Positions 1 to 61,818 of a DNA stretch of 64,000 nucleotides are shown here, in pieces; the first letter of the stretch is position 1; the number at the start of each line of letters is the position of its first letter. A model generated the notes under the pieces. That model worked only from the letters and a program-made list of their open reading frames with translations. It made no database searches and was not told the DNA's origin. The position numbers and the translations under genes were made by a program. The DNA comes from a virus. The DNA lies in the IMG/VR virus record IMGVR_UViG_3300033075_000468. One strand, written 5' to 3'.

Positions 1-1734
1 TGAAACTGGTTGGGTTACTGCGGAACCATCCACCTTGACAGCAGTCATGCCAGTAATACCCTGTACAGTTATTACATCTGCTGATGCTGTTCCTGCGGTG
101 CCTAATGCGGGTTGTTTAGCTGCGGTAGCTGCACCAGTTGGAAGAGAAACAGTACCAGATACGTTAGTAATGTTCCATGTTCCAGACTGTGTGGCAGCTA
201 CAGTGCCATCGACTGTTATAGAGCTACCATTATCATCAATCGAGATAGCTCCACCTAGATCAGAGATACCTACACGTCCTGCTGAGTCTACAGCAATAGC
301 AGAGAAGTCTCCGTCAAGAGAAGTCTTAGAAGCTGCGGCGTCGTTTCTGACACCAAGGATCATCAGTCCCGTTTCGCCTCCTGCTGAGGCTGCATCTTCT
401 GTTTGTACTGACGGGAATCCTGTACCCGCATTTGCGGTTACTGACCCTGATATAGCTACAGTACCATCAACTGTTATTGATCCTCCACCATCATCTATCG
501 AGATAGTAGAAGCATTGTCATCTATGTGAACAACGTTGGTAATAGTTGAAACAGTACCTACGTTCCATGTTCCTGACTGAGTAGCTTGCACCGCAAAGGT
601 ACCAGCGTTGTCTACAGTGAGTGAACCACCATTATCTGTAACGGGAACGGCAGCAGATGAAGCGTCTACTTTGAGTGCTCCACCGGCAGATACAGTGGCT
701 CTTTGGCCTCTAGTTGATGCATCTTCAAGCACCAATACCTGCGCCCGCTTAGAGTCTACTCTAGCGGCTGCTGCGTCATTTTCTGTTAAAGCTGTCCCGG
801 CGACTTCATCGAAGATGTATCCAGCCTGAAACAGTTTTGATGTACCATCAGTAAACCCTGCATTGTCAGTGATTACTTGTGAATCTTGAACAGCAAAGGT
901 TCCGGCATTGTCTACCGTTAGAGAACCTGAGTTGTCTGTTACAGCTACCGCTGTAGAAATTGCGTTGATATTCCAGGTACCTGATTGTGCTGCTTGAACA
1001 GCGAATGTACCCCCGTTATCAACTGTTATAGAACCTGCACCGTCGTCAATGGATATTGTAGATCCATTGTCGTCAATAGAAATTGCCCCGCCACCATCTT
1101 GCACCGTTACAGTGCCAGAAACCGGCTGTGTTACAGCCGAATTATCTACCTTAAGAGCGCCAGCAGCAGAAACAGTTGCCCGCTGACCTCTTGTTGTTGC
1201 ATCCTCAATTGTAAGAACCTGCGCTCGCTTAACATCTATACGAGCAGCAGCGGCATCGTTTTCGGTGAGAGCAGTACCGGCAACCTCATCATACACATAG
1301 CCAGCAGCAAATACTTTAGTAGTTCCATCTGTAAATGCTGCATTGTCAGCAACTACTTGTGAGTCCTGAACAGCAAAAGTCCCACCGTTATCAACGGTGA
1401 GAGATCCTGCCCCATCATCTATAGATAGAGTTGAACCATTATCATCAACGTGTACAACGTTGGTAATGGTTGTGACAGTACCTACGTTCCATGTACCAGA
1501 TTGGGTGGCGGCTACGGTGCCGTCAACAGTTATTGACGATCCACCATCATCTACTGAGATAGTGGTGCCATCGTCTCTAATTGGAATACCGTGAGACGCA
1601 TCGACTAGCTGGGTACCAACAGTTAATTGCACAATTTGATTTTGTGCAACACCTGCTCCTAAATCCTGCTGATCAACATTTACGTCATAAGAACCGCTAA
1701 GACCATCTGAAATAGTCTGTTTTGCTACTGTCAA
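1..1734 (-). CDS. Repeat-containing tail fibre-like structural protein, partial; its C-terminus lies beyond the window start. Probable TTG start at 1734.
   Basis: Hand translation of the minus strand gives a stop-free frame for more than 570 codons. It has tandem roughly 300-aa repeats rich in VTDNSGSLTVDNAGTFAVQ / SIDDNGSTISIDDGAG motifs. GGAG lies 10 nt upstream of the TTG. The plus-strand ORFs listed in the track for this region are opposite-strand artefacts. Confidence 0.55.
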   Translation of the reverse strand, partial: MTVAKQTISDGLSGSYDVNVDQQDLGAGVAQNQIVQLTVGTQLVDASHGIPIRDDGTTISVDDGGSSITVDGTVAATQSGTWNVGTVTTITNVVHVDDNGSTLSIDDGAGSLTVDNGGTFAVQDSQVVADNAAFTDGTTKVFAAGYVYDEVAGTALTENDAAAARIDVKRAQVLTIEDATTRGQRATVSAAGALKVDNSAVTQPVSGTVTVQDGGGAISIDDNGSTISIDDGAGSITVDNGGTFAVQAAQSGTWNINAISTAVAVTDNSGSLTVDNAGTFAVQDSQVITDNAGFTDGTSKLFQAGYIFDEVAGTALTENDAAAARVDSKRAQVLVLEDASTRGQRATVSAGGALKVDASSAAVPVTDNGGSLTVDNAGTFAVQATQSGTWNVGTVSTITNVVHIDDNASTISIDDGGGSITVDGTVAISGSVTANAGTGFPSVQTEDAASAGGETGLMILGVRNDAAASKTSLDGDFSAIAVDSAGRVGISDLGGAISIDDNGSSITVDGTVAATQSGTWNITNVSGTVSLPTGAATAAKQPALGTAGTASADVITVQGITGMTAVKVDGSAVTQPVS

Positions 1735-40962: not shown

Positions 40963-41337
40963 CTATCGCTCATTTGATATCCACCACATAAGCTTACGAA
41001 GTTGTAGTTTGATTTCATCAGCATCACTAAGTTCATATCCGAAGCCATCTTCGCTTCTTAGCTTCCACCATAGATGTACTTCAAACTCGCTATTAAAATA
41101 TAGTGATATATCGTATCCATTTTTATGCCAAACAAACATGATGCCAGTCCACTCTTCATCAGGAATAACAGATGGTGTTGGGCTGTAATCTGGCAAATAT
41201 ACAGGTGTAAGAGTTTTTACGACCCAAATCAATTCCTTACTAGGATAAGGATATTCTGGCTCTCCCTCATATCCTTTAGACTTAACTAGCATACTAGCTA
41301 ATCTCTCATCAATATAAGGAAAGAGATGTTCATTCAT
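40963..41337 (-). CDS. Hypothetical protein.
   Basis: ORF of 124 aa. Confidence 0.4.
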   Translation of the reverse strand: MNEHLFPYIDERLASMLVKSKGYEGEPEYPYPSKELIWVVKTLTPVYLPDYSPTPSVIPDEEWTGIMFVWHKNGYDISLYFNSEFEVHLWWKLRSEDGFGYELSDADEIKLQLRKLMWWISNER

Positions 41338-41339
41338 GG

Positions 41340-41366
41340 TCTAGTATGAGGGATTTGAACCCCCGA
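41340..41366 (-). pseudogene. tRNA 3-prime fragment (T-arm plus 3-prime acceptor, CCA encoded) between an HNH gene and the next gene.
   Basis: The minus strand reads gtcgggggttcaaatccctc-atactag-a-cca, a perfect T-arm like those of the tRNAs at 50686 and 57532, with no 5-prime half present. Confidence 0.35.
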
Positions 41367-41954
41367 CTACCAATCCTTCCTCGTTTTTAGTGCATGACAC
41401 CATACACACAATGGCATCAAATTTTCTATTTTATTATTAGATCTATTTGAGTCAATATGATCAACATCTAACATTTTTTTGGGTATTTCAATTCCAGATT
41501 TTTGAAGAGAACAATCAGGATTACAGCAAATCTCTCCAAATTTAGAAAAGGCTTTTTCTCTATAATTGGTGCCTCCTTTCCAATTTGGATGAAACTCTTC
41601 TACTTTAAACTTATTATTAAAGGAAGTTGCACAACTTCTATTACAAAATACTTTTCCTGTTTTACTTTTATCAATTTGTGACTTTCTTCTTTTTACTTTT
41701 TTTTGACAATATCCACACTCTAATGTTATAGATTCAGATTTTCCTACTGACTGACAATTTCTACTACAATAAACATTAGGGAAGATATGGGTTTTGCGCC
41801 TCCAAATTTCTGTATCACATACAGAACACTTAACTAGCGCCCACCATCTATGATTCTCAAATTTTTCATCAATAAAGTCAGGTAAGAGGGCTACGATCCC
41901 CCGACCTTCGATTCCCAAAACCGACGCTCTTCCTACTGAGCTATTACCTGTCAT
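41367..41954 (-). CDS. HNH endonuclease with a Zn finger. The annotated N-terminal 25 codons coincide with a tRNA-Pro gene.
   Basis: The C-terminal LMPLCVWCHALKTRKD fits the HNH motif. No alternative in-frame start exists downstream of the tRNA until late in the ORF. Confidence 0.55.
   Translation of the reverse strand: MTGNSSVGRASVLGIEGRGIVALLPDFIDEKFENHRWWALVKCSVCDTEIWRRKTHIFPNVYCSRNCQSVGKSESITLECGYCQKKVKRRKSQIDKSKTGKVFCNRSCATSFNNKFKVEEFHPNWKGGTNYREKAFSKFGEICCNPDCSLQKSGIEIPKKMLDVDHIDSNRSNNKIENLMPLCVWCHALKTRKDW
41878..41950 (-). tRNA. tRNA-Pro(TGG) with a non-canonical T-loop.
   Basis: Hand fold: caggtaa-ta-gctc-agtaggaa-gagc-g-tcggt-tttggga-atcga-aggtc-ggggg-atcgtag-ccctc-ttacctg-a, 73 nt. 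The acceptor is a perfect 7 bp. The T-loop is aTCGtAG, with positions 54 and 58 swapped relative to consensus. Confidence 0.5.
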
Positions 41955-56953: not shown

Positions 56954-57097
56954 ATGCAGGTTTCTGATGCCAGAATGAGAGAGATGGGCAAGGATCTTTA
57001 TGCGGTGTCGAGAGATACCACGGTTCCTGAACATCTTCGTCAAAGAGCAGCGGGTCATAGCCAGTTCATCTATGATAAGCTGCATGAGAATAAGTAA
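56954..57097 (+). CDS. Hypothetical small protein.
   Basis: ORF MQVSDARMREMGKDLYAVS..., 47 aa, with AAGGAAA 7 nt upstream of the ATG. The track ORF started inside tRNA-Glu. Confidence 0.3.
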   Translation: MQVSDARMREMGKDLYAVSRDTTVPEHLRQRAAGHSQFIYDKLHENK

Positions 57098-57104
57098 GTA
57101 ATCA

Positions 57105-57165
57105 GGAGAGTTGGCAGAGCGGACTATTGCACTGGTCTTGCTATGTAATAGACGCCAGTATAGTC
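57105..57165 (+). pseudogene. 5-prime fragment of a tRNA-Ser-like gene (acceptor 5-prime strand, D-arm, start of anticodon arm) that continues into a long hairpin.
   Basis: The sequence ggagagttggcagagcggactattgca matches 19 of the first 20 nt of the intact tRNA-Ser at 57532 (ggagagatggcagagcggccaaatgcg). No T-arm or 3-prime acceptor follows, and the nuclease gene starts at 57173. Confidence 0.4.
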
Positions 57166-57172
57166 TACTGGT

Positions 57173-57526
57173 ATGGACTCCCGTACAAAGCTGGGGAGCC
57201 TAGCAGAACTAAAGGTAGCTGCTGAACTATTATCACAAGACTACGAAGTATTCGTTGGTTGGGGTGGGAAAACCACATGTGATTTAGTCGCCATCAAAGA
57301 CTCAGAAATATTGAGAGTTCAGGTCAAAGGAACTGGAACACAAAGTAAGTCTGGAAAATGGATAACGCAACTCAAGTCAGTTAGGTCAAACAGAACAAAG
57401 AACGTTATATATCCTTTCGATTCAACATTGTGTGAAATCGTAGGAATCTATATAGCACCAGAAGATAGAGTAGTTATATTAAGCTCGGAAGAGCTACATG
57501 GTAAAAGTGAAATAAGAATAACATAA
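57173..57526 (+). CDS. PD-(D/E)xK nuclease, Hjc or restriction-endonuclease-like.
   Basis: [30 protein letters not shown] fits the Hjc-type E..D-x-[VI]..K nuclease core. The gene is sandwiched between the tRNA-Ser 5-prime fragment and the intact tRNA-Ser. Confidence 0.55.
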
Positions 57527-57531
57527 TACTT

Positions 57532-57616
57532 GGAGAGATGGCAGAGCGGCCAAATGCGAGCGCCTTGAAAGCGCTAGACTCGAAAGGGTCCGGGGGTTCA
57601 AATCCCTCTCTCTCCG
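57532..57616 (+). tRNA. tRNA-Ser(TGA), class II.
   Basis: Hand fold: ggagaga-tg-gca-gagcggccaaa-tgc-g-agcgc-cttgaaa-gcgct-agactcgaaagggtcc-ggggg-ttcaaat-ccctc-tctctcc-g, 85 nt. Confidence 0.85.
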
Positions 57617-57677
57617 CTGCACATAATAACCGGCCATGACTAGAAAGATGGGCTACCTAAAGGGGTATGTCTGCTAG

Positions 57678-58235
57678 TTGGGGCACGACGAAAGGAATAC
57701 TGTGCTTACACAAGAAATCATTGAACATATGAAGGAATTCTGCCTTAATGAAGATAAGATGCTTTGGCAGATGGGCGACTATCTTAATGAGCACAAGCTG
57801 ACAGACGAGGAAATTGAAAAGCTTGCTGATATCGTTCAGCGCAAAGCTTCTACACTTCGTCAGCGTGAAATGGTGGCAAGAGAATTCCAGCCAGAAGTTC
57901 GTAACTATAATCATGCATGGTCAGTTTATAAAGAACTAATGAGAGTTAAGGGGAAGGATTCCCGCCAAGAACTTCTAGATGGTAGAAATGAATGGACTGT
58001 TGACTCTATGAAGTCGGCAGTAAATGATTTCATTTCATCACAACCTAGTGATGGTTCGGGGCGTAATAGAATAGGTACACCGTTAGGTGGTGCAAGTGCA
58101 GGCATGAGAATTGGCAATATTCTCATTCGTGGCACTGAGCAGAATGGTGAATTAACAATCACCATTGATAAACCATTATCTGATATTCAAACCCTTTCAG
58201 GAAAGCAGTCCACCACTATCATCTGTCATGTCTGA
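57678..58235 (+). CDS. Hypothetical protein. The ORF-track start is a TTG; a GTG at 57702 with AAAGGA upstream is more likely.
   Basis: ORF of about 177-185 aa. Confidence 0.4.
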   Translation: MGHDERNTVLTQEIIEHMKEFCLNEDKMLWQMGDYLNEHKLTDEEIEKLADIVQRKASTLRQREMVAREFQPEVRNYNHAWSVYKELMRVKGKDSRQELLDGRNEWTVDSMKSAVNDFISSQPSDGSGRNRIGTPLGGASAGMRIGNILIRGTEQNGELTITIDKPLSDIQTLSGKQSTTIICHV

Positions 58236-58662
58236 TCATTTCAGTAGCCTAGTAAGAAGTAGAAGGCTTGAATTAGGGCTGACTCAGATAGAATTATCTA
58301 GACAGATGGGTGTGTCTAAAAGTGTTATTGCTAAAATGGAGCAAGGGTTAACTCGTTCTATTTTATCCACCAGAATTCATTTTTTTACTAATCCACCACT
58401 TCTATTTTCTAGAGAAATTGTTGAATCTTGGTGCAGCACTAATAGAGAGTGTTCAATAAAAGGTTGTTCAAAGCCAGCAGAAAAACGTACCGTATGTGGA
58501 ATGCATTACCGCAGATGGCAAAGAGATGGAGATTTGCGTGGGGCAGATAGAGAACGGCCCTCATATGTAGACTCAATCTGCTTGATTGTCGGATGCGGTC
58601 TTAAACCTCATGGGCAAGGGTTATGCGATAAGCACTACATGCAATTCTTAAGAAGTCGATAA
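58228..58662 (+). CDS. HTH (XRE-like) DNA-binding domain fused to a duplicated actinophage-type HNH-like Zn motif.
   Basis: It has LGLTQIELSRQMGVSKSVIAKME (HTH) and two copies of C-x4-GC...[GR]-x-[GV]-x-C-x2-HY-x-[RQ][WF]. The start is trimmed to the internal Met after the overlap. Confidence 0.5.
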   Translation: MSDHFSSLVRSRRLELGLTQIELSRQMGVSKSVIAKMEQGLTRSILSTRIHFFTNPPLLFSREIVESWCSTNRECSIKGCSKPAEKRTVCGMHYRRWQRDGDLRGADRERPSYVDSICLIVGCGLKPHGQGLCDKHYMQFLRSR

Positions 58663-58670
58663 GTAAGGTA

Positions 58671-58749
58671 GGAGGGTATGGCATTGGTTGCACTGGTGAA
58701 AACCAGCGGGTGCTTCGGTGCCCCCAGGGTTCGAATCCCTGGCTCTCCG
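58671..58749 (+). ncRNA. Anticodon-less tRNA-like RNA: tRNA acceptor and T-arm combined with two tetraloop hairpins.
   Basis: It reads ggagggt-at-g-gca-ttggt-tgc-a-[ctggt-GAAA-accag]-c-[gggtgc-TTCG-gtgccc]-c-caggg-ttcgaat-ccctg-gctctcc-g. The acceptor pairs over 7 positions (two G-U). The anticodon position is a GNRA-capped hairpin and the variable position a UUCG-capped hairpin. Confidence 0.45.
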
Positions 58750-58860
58750 CAAACGCATACATGACGGTAGTATGCGGGGAACAAACAAGTCCTAAAATCC
58801 GAAGGCGACACGCACGTGCAATCTGACTGTCGTAAACCAGTAACTTGTTTGTTCCCACCA

Positions 58861-61734: not shown

Positions 61735-61777
61735 CTTTTTAATCCGCCGGTCGTGGGTTCGACCCCCACCGCCCCTA
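61735..61777 (+). pseudogene. tRNA 3-prime half (from the anticodon-stem 3-prime strand onward) fused directly after tRNA-Lys.
   Basis: It reads ctttttaa-tccgc-cggtc-gtggg-ttcgacc-cccac-cgcccct-a. The tccgc strand and gtggg..cccac T-arm resemble the 56390 tRNA, and the acceptor end cgcccct-a is identical to the fragment at 55905. Confidence 0.4.
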
Positions 61778-61818
61778 CAAAAATTCGGACTGTCACACCC
61801 CTTGGGTATAATGGAGCC

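Follow-up and report, generated by a model that had tools for sequence, protein, structure and literature searches.

A homing endonuclease gene of the I-Ssp6803I family and a broken tRNA-Ser(UGA) gene in a phage tRNA array

How does a nuclease gene come to lie between the 5' piece of one tRNA-Ser gene and an intact tRNA-Ser gene? The question is raised by a locus in IMG/VR virus record IMGVR_UViG_3300033075_000468, of which we analyzed the whole stretch of 64,000 nucleotides (nt) presented here (the window; 42.9% G+C overall), which appears to belong to the genome of an uncultivated phage. An earlier description made by a model from the letters alone (the sequence-only reading) had placed a Hjc-like PD-(D/E)xK nuclease gene at 57173 to 57526, after a duplicate of about the first 27 nt of tRNA-Ser and before a complete tRNA-Ser gene, and had suggested either a partial target-site duplication left by a mobile nuclease cassette or an intron-like insertion that was later repaired. 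Our analysis leads to a related but different answer, to which we assign a probability of about 0.65: a homing endonuclease block carrying its own tRNA-Ser gene (Ser-B) disrupted a resident tRNA-Ser gene (Ser-A). The features on the left side of this block are as follows.

57090 to 57098, plus strand: 9-nt leader, ATAAGTAAG, containing the stop codon of the open reading frame (ORF) at 56954 to 57097 and starting the left direct repeat
57105 to 57139, plus strand: 5' half of Ser-A, a tRNA-Ser(UGA), with the acceptor 5' strand, the D arm, the 5' strand of the anticodon stem, and the loop as far as U34
57141 to 57153, plus strand: filler of 13 nt, CTATGTAATAGAC, separating the broken tRNA from the nuclease cassette
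57155 to 57171, plus strand: palindrome CCAGTA-TAGTC-TACTGG (CCAGTATAGTCTACTGG) with 6-bp arms, at the left end of the conserved nuclease cassette
57173 to 57526, plus strand: nuclease ORF of 117 amino acids (aa), a free-standing homing endonuclease gene of the I-Ssp6803I family (PF11645, PD-(D/E)xK) with an intact reading frame
57532 to 57617, plus strand: Ser-B, an intact tRNA-Ser(UGA) called by ARAGORN and by Rfam (tRNA model, 55.4 bits), with the anticodon stem AGCGC/GCGCT

We called tRNA genes with ARAGORN (default settings, plus an intron mode allowing introns of up to 3 kb) and with Rfam models, and we scored the likeness of the fragment to tRNA-Ser with an nhmmer profile built from 11 phage tRNA-Ser genes. 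The profile matched 57105 to 57140 over its positions 1 to 36 (E = 2.3e-4), and the first 35 nt of the fragment differ from the intact tRNA-Ser(tga) gene of an unrelated viral contig (L074) by one mismatch and one 1-nt gap. The similarity noticed in the sequence-only reading is thus real and above chance, but the stretch measures about 35 nt rather than 27 nt and reaches anticodon position 34/35; the G at 57140 could be G35 of Ser-A. Through the anticodon stem and up to G35, the fragment is the same as many phage tRNA-Ser(UGA) genes, and the likeness stops after that point. No 3' half of its own follows the fragment, and neither ARAGORN at default settings nor the Rfam tRNA search called 57105 to 57139.

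The complete tRNA-Ser gene was confirmed directly after the nuclease stop codon, from which it is separated by a 5-nt spacer. Its start and the fragment are identical at 22 of 26 positions (57105 to 57130; direct repeat D1, 85%). The anticodon stem, however, reads CTGGT in the fragment and AGCGC in Ser-B. The fragment is not a copy of Ser-B: it is closer to a different tRNA-Ser(UGA) allele with the stem CTGGT, Ser-B being less alike. Judged by these alignments, a second tRNA-Ser(UGA) allele, broken inside the anticodon, has left its 5' half here. The anticodon arm of Ser-A is common in viral contigs (at least 120 matches), and the nuclease was present in none of the 120 loci that were fetched. 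The 5' half of Ser-B had no exact match in IMG/VR, and Ser-B is presumably the linked replacement allele.

We also considered the fragment as a decayed tRNA-Ser(GCU) gene, an idea that arose from its TTGCTA motif and from the tRNA-Ser(gct) genes upstream of the nuclease in three related loci (L002, L003, and L010). This origin was rejected on two grounds. The GCT is one base out of register, and the anticodon stem and the start of the loop are the same as in four tRNA-Ser(UGA) genes (L006, L074, L115, and L079) up to G35.

The 3' half that matches the fragment lies 1.56 kb downstream, at the other end of the block, where the following features were found.

57678 to 58235, plus strand: ORF of 185 aa (from a TTG start) with no assigned function, inside the block
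58228 to 58662, plus strand: ORF of 144 aa with a helix-turn-helix (HTH) domain and the Cys-rich N-terminal repeats of actinophage HNH endonucleases, with no HNH catalytic domain
58659 to 58667, plus strand: second copy of the leader 9-mer, starting the right direct repeat
58671 to 58750, plus strand: degenerate tRNA-Ser-like element, found by a motif search for orphan T arms, by nhmmer, and with Rfam

The matching 3' half occupies 58698 to 58750 within the degenerate element (...TTGCACTGGT-GAAA-ACCAG-(variable arm)-CAGGGTTCGAATCCCTG-GCTCTCC-G). Its acceptor 3' strand pairs with GGAGAGT of the fragment, and joining 57105 to 57139 with 58698 to 58750 in silico yielded a canonical tRNA-Ser(tga) according to ARAGORN, with the acceptor stem of the intact L074 gene. 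Two short sequences each occur only twice in the window, namely, the leader 9-mer, both copies of which lie upstream of a tRNA-Ser piece, and TTGCACTGGT, at 57127 to 57136 and 58688 to 58697. In the degenerate element, all stems are intact, the 5' strand is its own (GGAGGGT), the D loop is shortened to 5 nt, and the anticodon loop has shrunk from CTTGAAA to GAAA (i.e., a 4-nt loop with 3 nt missing). The tRNA-Ser profile matched the element at positions 23 to 87 (E = 4.5e-4), and the Rfam tRNA-Sec model gave 25.7 bits, which is below the threshold; neither ARAGORN at default settings nor the Rfam tRNA model called it. The end of the fragment and the deletion in this element fall at the same 3 nt of the anticodon loop.

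Between these two lesions, the 1.56-kb block contains the nuclease gene, Ser-B, and the two ORFs, with approximately 130 nt of noncoding sequence. Imperfect direct repeats of about 45 nt (with indels), consisting of the tRNA leader and 5' half, border the block, which contains no integrase and has a G+C content (42.0%) that does not differ from that of the window. The proposal of a target-site duplication therefore survives in part, since the 5' part of the disrupted gene is present twice, as direct repeats flanking the block. The inserted unit is about 1.56 kb rather than about 0.4 kb, however, and the partner of the fragment is the element at 58671 to 58750 rather than Ser-B, which is a different allele and most likely travels with the nuclease. 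The view of the fragment as the relic of a tRNA-Ser gene that was disrupted in connection with the nuclease is likewise supported.

A canonical joined product would also be expected if 57105 to 57138 and 58697 to 58750 were the exons of a functional tRNA-Ser(UGA) gene with a self-splicing, endonuclease-bearing intron of 1.56 kb at position 33/34, as in the Synechocystis tRNA-fMet gene, or if the two halves were joined in trans. The sequence permits U33 as the last base of the 5' exon and a G at the end of the intervening sequence (...CACTGG), and position 33/34 is where the PF11645-encoding introns of tRNA-fMet genes sit (PMC13011429). Three Rfam scans with permissive filters (E ≤ 10) nevertheless gave no match to a group I or group II intron, and the intron mode of ARAGORN returned nothing. 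Furthermore, the intervening 1.56 kb is made up almost entirely of ORFs and a complete tRNA, and its last 27 nt look like the 5' half of a tRNA, unlike the end of an intron. As for a split tRNA, the sequence that follows the 5' half shows, by eye, no complementarity to the one that precedes the 3' half, as a split tRNA would require. We regard a spliced or trans-joined tRNA as scarcely credible. The lack of an intron match and the complete tRNA that starts 5 nt after the ORF identify the nuclease as a free-standing rather than an intron-encoded member of its family, and the suggestion of an intron-like insertion that was later repaired found no support.

The same anatomy could in principle result from ordinary decay of redundant tRNA-Ser(UGA) paralogues (e.g., after a segmental duplication), with a random deletion of the 3' half in one copy, deletions in the loops of another, and the nuclease as an uninvolved bystander. 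Such decay would be in keeping with the 5' half that the 58671 element has of its own and with the orphan tRNA pieces and odd elements that occur in the window without linkage to the nuclease (61736 to 61780, 55894 to 55937, 53634 to 53725, and others). It does not readily explain why both lesions lie at the same 3-nt position of the anticodon loop, why the end of the fragment coincides with the start of the nuclease cassette, or why the stems of the 58671 element are all intact, which is unlike slow random decay. We return to this reading below with the relatives of the gene.

The ORF at 57173 to 57526 is an intact PD-(D/E)xK nuclease gene, as first described. Its product matched Pfam family PF11645 (PDDEXK_5) with 53.5 bits against a cutoff of 26.1 (E = 3.2e-14; residues 6 to 109) and phrog_5018 (E = 5.9e-14), and its best sequence match in the PDB was 2OST (I-Ssp6803I). 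The AlphaFold (AF2) model was confident (predicted local distance difference test [pLDDT], 88.9; predicted template modeling score [pTM], 0.82). In a Foldseek search, this model matched 2OST_A (E = 8.1e-9; query-normalized template modeling [TM] score, 0.86; root mean square deviation [rmsd], 2.2 Å over 117 columns), while the next folds (Hjc and EcoRV) had E values of >0.01, with the Hjc entries (E, 0.013 to 0.15; TM score, 0.44 to 0.52) far behind 2OST. Residues D37, Q50, and K52 are identical in 2OST and, together with E12, are invariant across six homologues. Assigned by its predicted fold and by alignment of its catalytic residues, the nuclease is a member of the I-Ssp6803I (PF11645) family. 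The Hjc family was absent from its Pfam matches at E ≤ 0.1, and no GIY-YIG domain was found, Pfam giving PDDEXK_5 plus only sub-threshold NERD and DUF6723 matches. The label "Hjc-like" thus expresses a resemblance at the level of the fold only.

We then compared the surroundings of related genes. Phage-like contigs are the setting of all five homologues from databases (51 to 67% identity by alignment) and of a sixth from a metagenome scan (54%). The surroundings of 13 relatives were read: every one is in a phage tRNA array, mostly with tRNA-Ser neighbors. A tRNA gene is no more than about 25 nt away from 12 of them, and the other (L006) is 165 nt from the nearest called tRNA. Among the close homologues (L001, L002, L003 to L005, L006, and L008), a tRNA-Ser(tga) gene follows directly 3' in every case, although that of L002 was missed by ARAGORN and recognized by eye. 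An intact tRNA-Ser(gct) gene is also found just upstream of the nuclease in L002 and L003. A tblastx comparison of the homologous loci with the window revealed nothing in common except the nuclease and the tRNAs. More distant members (31 to 43% identity) are found beside tRNA-Val (L009) or between tRNA-Ser(gct) and tRNA-Leu (L010) and, in cultured phages, beside tRNA-Ser(gct) in Streptomyces phages Jada and Bartholomune, tRNA-Arg in Arthrobacter phage Racecar, tRNA-Leu in Vibrio phage pVp-1, and tRNA-Ser(tga) in Felixounavirus NJ12.

The ends of several of these genes run into their neighbors. In L001 (3249 to 3653), L003 (6001 to 6390), L008 (2045 onward), and L012 (1225 to 1581), the nuclease ORF lacks a stop codon before the tRNA and continues into it; the L003 ORF terminates at the TGA anticodon of tRNA-Ser. 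L001 also contains a second, distant PF11645 gene (1240 to 1674; 22% identity) between tRNA-Ile(gat) and tRNA-Ile(tat), and the 3' end of this gene overlaps the second tRNA.

Two groups of cultured phages allow loci with and without the nuclease to be compared. In Samistivirus, the gene is present in five phages (six records) as an insertion of about 385 nt located exactly between the preceding coding sequence and the 5' end of tRNA-Ser(gct), and relatives with 85 to 97% identical flanks are without it. The tRNA-Ser(gct) of the nuclease-bearing phages has the D arm CCTACAGGTGTAGG, which is still base paired, as opposed to the palindromic GCGAGAGGTCTCGC; between phages with and without the nuclease, the T arm and the 3' acceptor strand are identical and the variable arm is nearly so. 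Bartholomune, which carries the nuclease, has such a D-arm-swapped tRNA-Ser(gct) with an identical 3' part, and Daubenski, which does not, has the anticodon arm of the nuclease-bearing phages but not their D arm. In Felixounavirus, 254 records share the locus and 8 of them contain the nuclease; in NJ12, the nuclease and a very different tRNA-Ser(tga) together take the place of the entire resident tRNA-Ser(tga). Members of the family are therefore sporadically present or absent at a fixed site in both genera, and on comparative evidence the nuclease has spread together with replacement of the adjacent tRNA (i.e., co-conversion) in both. Read from these genome comparisons, presence/absence and allele swaps are the signatures of a free-standing homing endonuclease that has its target in the neighboring tRNA gene and spreads with a divergent, presumably immune allele. 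Phage members of the family are tied to tRNA genes, above all tRNA-Ser, and move with a sequence-divergent, presumably cleavage-immune tRNA allele that replaces all or part of the resident one. The idea of a mobile, homing-type gene tied to tRNA-Ser, already present in the sequence-only reading, agrees with the sporadic occurrence and tRNA linkage of its relatives.

At the Felixounavirus locus (L014/L138, between tRNA-Ser and tRNA-Leu), the phages heid, tootiki, and Michonne have an annotated HNH endonuclease at the same intergenic site, in place of the PF11645 gene. This suggests that the site is a hot spot shared by different families of homing endonucleases.

These distributions also bear on the possibility that the nuclease is an immobile housekeeping or accessory enzyme, such as a junction resolvase or an anti-defense factor linked to tRNA arrays. 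Homologues are labeled "Holliday junction resolvase" in some GenBank records, and the family fold is distantly Hjc-like (PMC3384342). On the other hand, a gene carried by 8 of 254 Felixounavirus records and by five Samistivirus phages whose close relatives do without it is sporadic rather than housekeeping; the nuclease is always found inside tRNA arrays, and its best match in both sequence and structure is a proven homing endonuclease, the matches to Hjc being weak. We consider a housekeeping or accessory role very improbable. Decay of paralogues with the nuclease as a bystander fares somewhat better but is still unlikely: besides the coincidence of the lesions, it is at odds with the specificity of this nuclease family for tRNA genes, with the family-wide linkage to tRNA-Ser, and with the association between the nuclease and tRNA-Ser sequence replacement in two groups of cultured phages.

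The disruption of Ser-A by the nuclease block can be pictured as follows. A double-strand break would have occurred in the palindromic anticodon arm of the resident Ser-A, at about position 34/35, in keeping with the family prototype, which cuts such sites. A palindromic anticodon arm would suit a symmetric oligomeric enzyme such as the I-Ssp6803I tetramer. On the 3' side, the break would have been repaired by homology with a nuclease-bearing template, copying leftwards through the tRNA-Ser-like 5' part of the template, the two ORFs, Ser-B, and the nuclease. The 5' side would have been closed by illegitimate repair, leaving the 13-nt filler at 57141 to 57153. As a result, the Ser-A 5' half (57105 to 57139) would remain as a stump upstream of the block, with about 45 nt of the target duplicated, and the Ser-A 3' half (58698 to 58750) would lie downstream of it, joined to an altered duplicate of the leader and 5' half. 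The phage would then depend on Ser-B, whose anticodon stem differs. We infer from the sequences that the anticodon loop of Ser-A is where the enzyme cuts, that Ser-B resists cleavage, and that repair of a double-strand break with one illegitimate junction gave the present arrangement. A different order of events, with two copies of Ser-A that were each damaged at the cleavage site, fits the same anatomy.

Several observations weigh against this scheme. The 58671 element has a 5' acceptor strand and D arm of its own, so that one gene split in two is not the sole reading of the pieces: two paralogues that were damaged in the loop would look alike. In L006, the nuclease (64% identical) lies 3 nt upstream of a tRNA-Ser(tga) gene with the exact anticodon arm of Ser-A, which weakens this arm as the common target of the clade. 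In Samistivirus, the allele difference specific to nuclease-bearing phages is in the D arm and not in the anticodon arm; the D arm is the better target candidate there. The close spacing of the nuclease and Ser-B is uninformative by itself, as tight spacing of ORFs and tRNAs is general in the array, where most ORFs end 4 to 10 nt from the next tRNA or up to 10 nt inside it. Finally, searches of IMG/VR, protein databases, genome contigs, and cultured phages revealed no close relative of the window phage and none with an empty site. In these searches, protein patterns retrieved no relatives of the nuclease from IMG/VR, no relative was found among genome contigs, and the DNA of cultured phages had no match to the window beyond the tRNAs. 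An identical fragment of the window sequence was found in JGI metagenome 3300045331.

To our knowledge, only one PD-(D/E)xK homing endonuclease of the PF11645 family has been characterized, and it is intron-borne in a cyanobacterial tRNA gene. Its cuts probably leave 3-nt 3' overhangs, a property on which nothing argued here depends. This enzyme, I-Ssp6803I, belongs to a group I intron in the tRNA-fMet gene of Synechocystis, and it reads a 23-bp pseudo-palindrome as a tetramer (PMC3384342). Its specificity for the anticodon region is indicated by the same source and by the title of Bonocora and Shub (2001) as cited in PMC2175346. The window nuclease shares its Pfam family, fold, D...QxK residues, and association with tRNA genes, and the break in the window tRNA (34/35) adjoins the position of the tRNA-fMet introns (33/34). 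It differs in being free-standing and shorter (117 aa, compared with 151 residues in the 2OST chain), in occurring in a phage and not a cyanobacterium, and in being tied to tRNA-Ser rather than tRNA-fMet; tRNA function in the window is kept by a linked second allele and not by RNA splicing.

In lifestyle, the closest comparison is SegB, a GIY-YIG endonuclease of phages T4 and T6 that cuts in tRNA genes, spreads with neighboring tRNA genes, and replaces the tRNA region of the recipient (PMC2330249). Segmental duplications of tRNA genes can also arise through its action (PMC13096335). In phage tRNA clusters, free-standing homing endonucleases are already established. Like SegB, the window nuclease is encoded by a free-standing gene within a phage tRNA array, and we suggest the same lifestyle for it. 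With a PD-(D/E)xK rather than a GIY-YIG domain, it has an unrelated fold and catalytic motif and is thus an analogue and not a homologue. SegB recognizes a motif of the T-psi-C stem-loop (PMC2330249) and shows no preference for an isotype, whereas the family of the window nuclease favors tRNA-Ser and the lesions in the window lie in the anticodon loop.

A count of homing endonucleases in Jug (jumbo gut) phages has likewise included stand-alone PDDEXK_5 genes, i.e., phage genes of the same Pfam family (PMC12880540). The passage on these genes is limited to counts, and the paper, whose main text does not contain the word tRNA, reports no tRNA link, linked tRNA allele, or target. Integration into tRNA genes by integrases, with duplication of the att core, resembles the present case in that a block lies in a tRNA gene between direct repeats of part of the tRNA and that function is preserved by a sequence borne by the element. 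It differs in that the window block has no integrase, that its repeats are imperfect (about 45 nt, with indels), and that it carries a separate, whole tRNA and does not restore the interrupted one.

In the open-access literature, we found no account that presents the PF11645 enzymes of phages as homing endonucleases that are associated with tRNA-Ser and have a linked tRNA allele. It is tempting to propose that the phage members of the I-Ssp6803I family constitute an undescribed class: intron-less homing endonucleases, specific for tRNA genes, that carry their own cleavage-immune tRNA allele (mostly tRNA-Ser), drive the turnover of tRNA alleles, and leave tRNA pseudogene scars in the arrays of actinophages, Felix-O1-like phages, and T5-like phages. 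According to this proposal, the scars at the present locus (the end at 34/35 and the 3-nt deletion at 58697/58698) would mark an anticodon-loop cut site. We advance it tentatively, at less than even odds. A more remote idea is that the 58671 element, which lacks an anticodon and is otherwise perfectly paired, may itself be kept as a tRNA-like processing signal or decoy.

The evidence indicates that the phage relatives of I-Ssp6803I are free-standing, lie in tRNA arrays, and bring along a tRNA allele that replaces the resident one, which would make them a second, structurally unrelated example, beside SegB, of nucleases that shape phage tRNA repertoires. The pairs of loci with and without the nuclease in Samistivirus and Felixounavirus are natural experiments with defined candidate targets and cultivable hosts, to which the window locus adds the likely footprint of a cut site. 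Fragments of tRNAs in phage arrays, like tRNA-like elements that have no anticodon, may be scars of recombination and not genes.

The region between the tRNA fragment and the nuclease start codon had been described as a long irregular hairpin, but it is no more stable than shuffled sequences (minimum free energy, −19 kcal/mol; z = −0.78). The real feature is the palindrome at 57155 to 57171; the filler that precedes it resembles neither tRNA-Ser nor the upstream regions of the homologous loci. Within the palindrome lies a −10-like TATAGT (57159 to 57164) that ends 8 nt before the ATG. A similar palindrome and/or a TATA(C/G)T-like box occurs 4 to 8 nt before ATGGA in L001, L002, L003, L008, and Bartholomune, with a weaker box (TAAACT) in L006. 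A scan for two-hexamer sigma-70 promoters gave nothing upstream of the nuclease, and the TATAGT box is a putative promoter element judging by its sequence. In the window, L001, L002, L003, L008, and L012, the TATA(C/G)T box ends 4 to 8 nt before the ATGGA start with no Shine-Dalgarno sequence, a spacing that suggests a leaderless nuclease mRNA. In Jada, Racecar, and pVp-1, the nuclease ATG instead abuts the 3' end of the upstream tRNA, and tRNA processing could create the same leaderless 5' end.

Regarding the other genes of the block, the 185-aa ORF had no Pfam or PHROG match and no relatives in the protein database other than identical copies. The HTH ORF matched Pfam HTH_3 (E = 7e-8) and phrog_5351, "HNH endonuclease" (E = 1.5e-11), the latter over profile positions 44 to 109 of 171 only. 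Its HTH_3 domain is followed by two Cys-rich repeats, and it stops before the HNH catalytic motif, where the 58671 element begins. This domain layout would fit either a second homing endonuclease that has been truncated or a DNA-binding protein derived from one. A perfect 14-nt inverted repeat (58777 to 58790 and 58843 to 58856; GGGAACAAACAAGT and ACTTGTTTGTTCCC) with a 52-nt loop is found between the 58671 element and tRNA-Asp.

ARAGORN called 22 tRNAs in the window, 19 of which form the array at 49.6 to 63.7 kb; small ORFs, WhiB-like genes, and a number of HNH endonuclease genes lie among them. Three HNH ORFs (49240 to 49653, 54161 to 54487, and 55409 to 55828) each overlap the following tRNA (Gly-tcc, Gln-ttg, and Ile-tat, respectively) by 10 nt, and their stop codons (TAG/TAA) are the conserved U8-A9-G/A10 of the tRNA.

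Other incomplete tRNAs were also seen. Directly 3' of the intact tRNA-Lys(ttt), an orphan tRNA 3' half (61736 to 61780; TTTTTAA-TCCGC-...-GTGGGTTCGACCCCCAC-CGCCCCT-A) begins in the anticodon loop and is identical to the 3' half of tRNA-Arg(tct) at 28 of 34 positions; as an intact tRNA beside a copy broken in the anticodon loop, this arrangement mirrors the finding at 57105. Further orphan motifs consisting of a T arm and an acceptor 3' strand, none called as tRNAs, lie at 55894 to 55937, 55040 to 55100, 49820 to 49865, and 41330 to 41400 (minus strand), and no matching 5' halves were found for them. The orphan motif after tRNA-Ile(tat) ends in CACCGCCCCTAC, as does the one after tRNA-Lys(ttt). 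Two elements were missed by ARAGORN at default settings: a weak tmRNA/tRNA signal at 50411 to 50487 and an odd tRNA-like sequence at 53634 to 53725 (26.3 bits with the tRNA-Sec model), whose acceptor stem is GGCGGGG/CCCCGCC, whose anticodon loop is oversized and contains CAT, and whose variable region is long. Far from the array, the 79-nt tRNA-Ile(gat) that ARAGORN called at 1349 to 1427 (minus strand) is atypical in sequence and may be a false positive.

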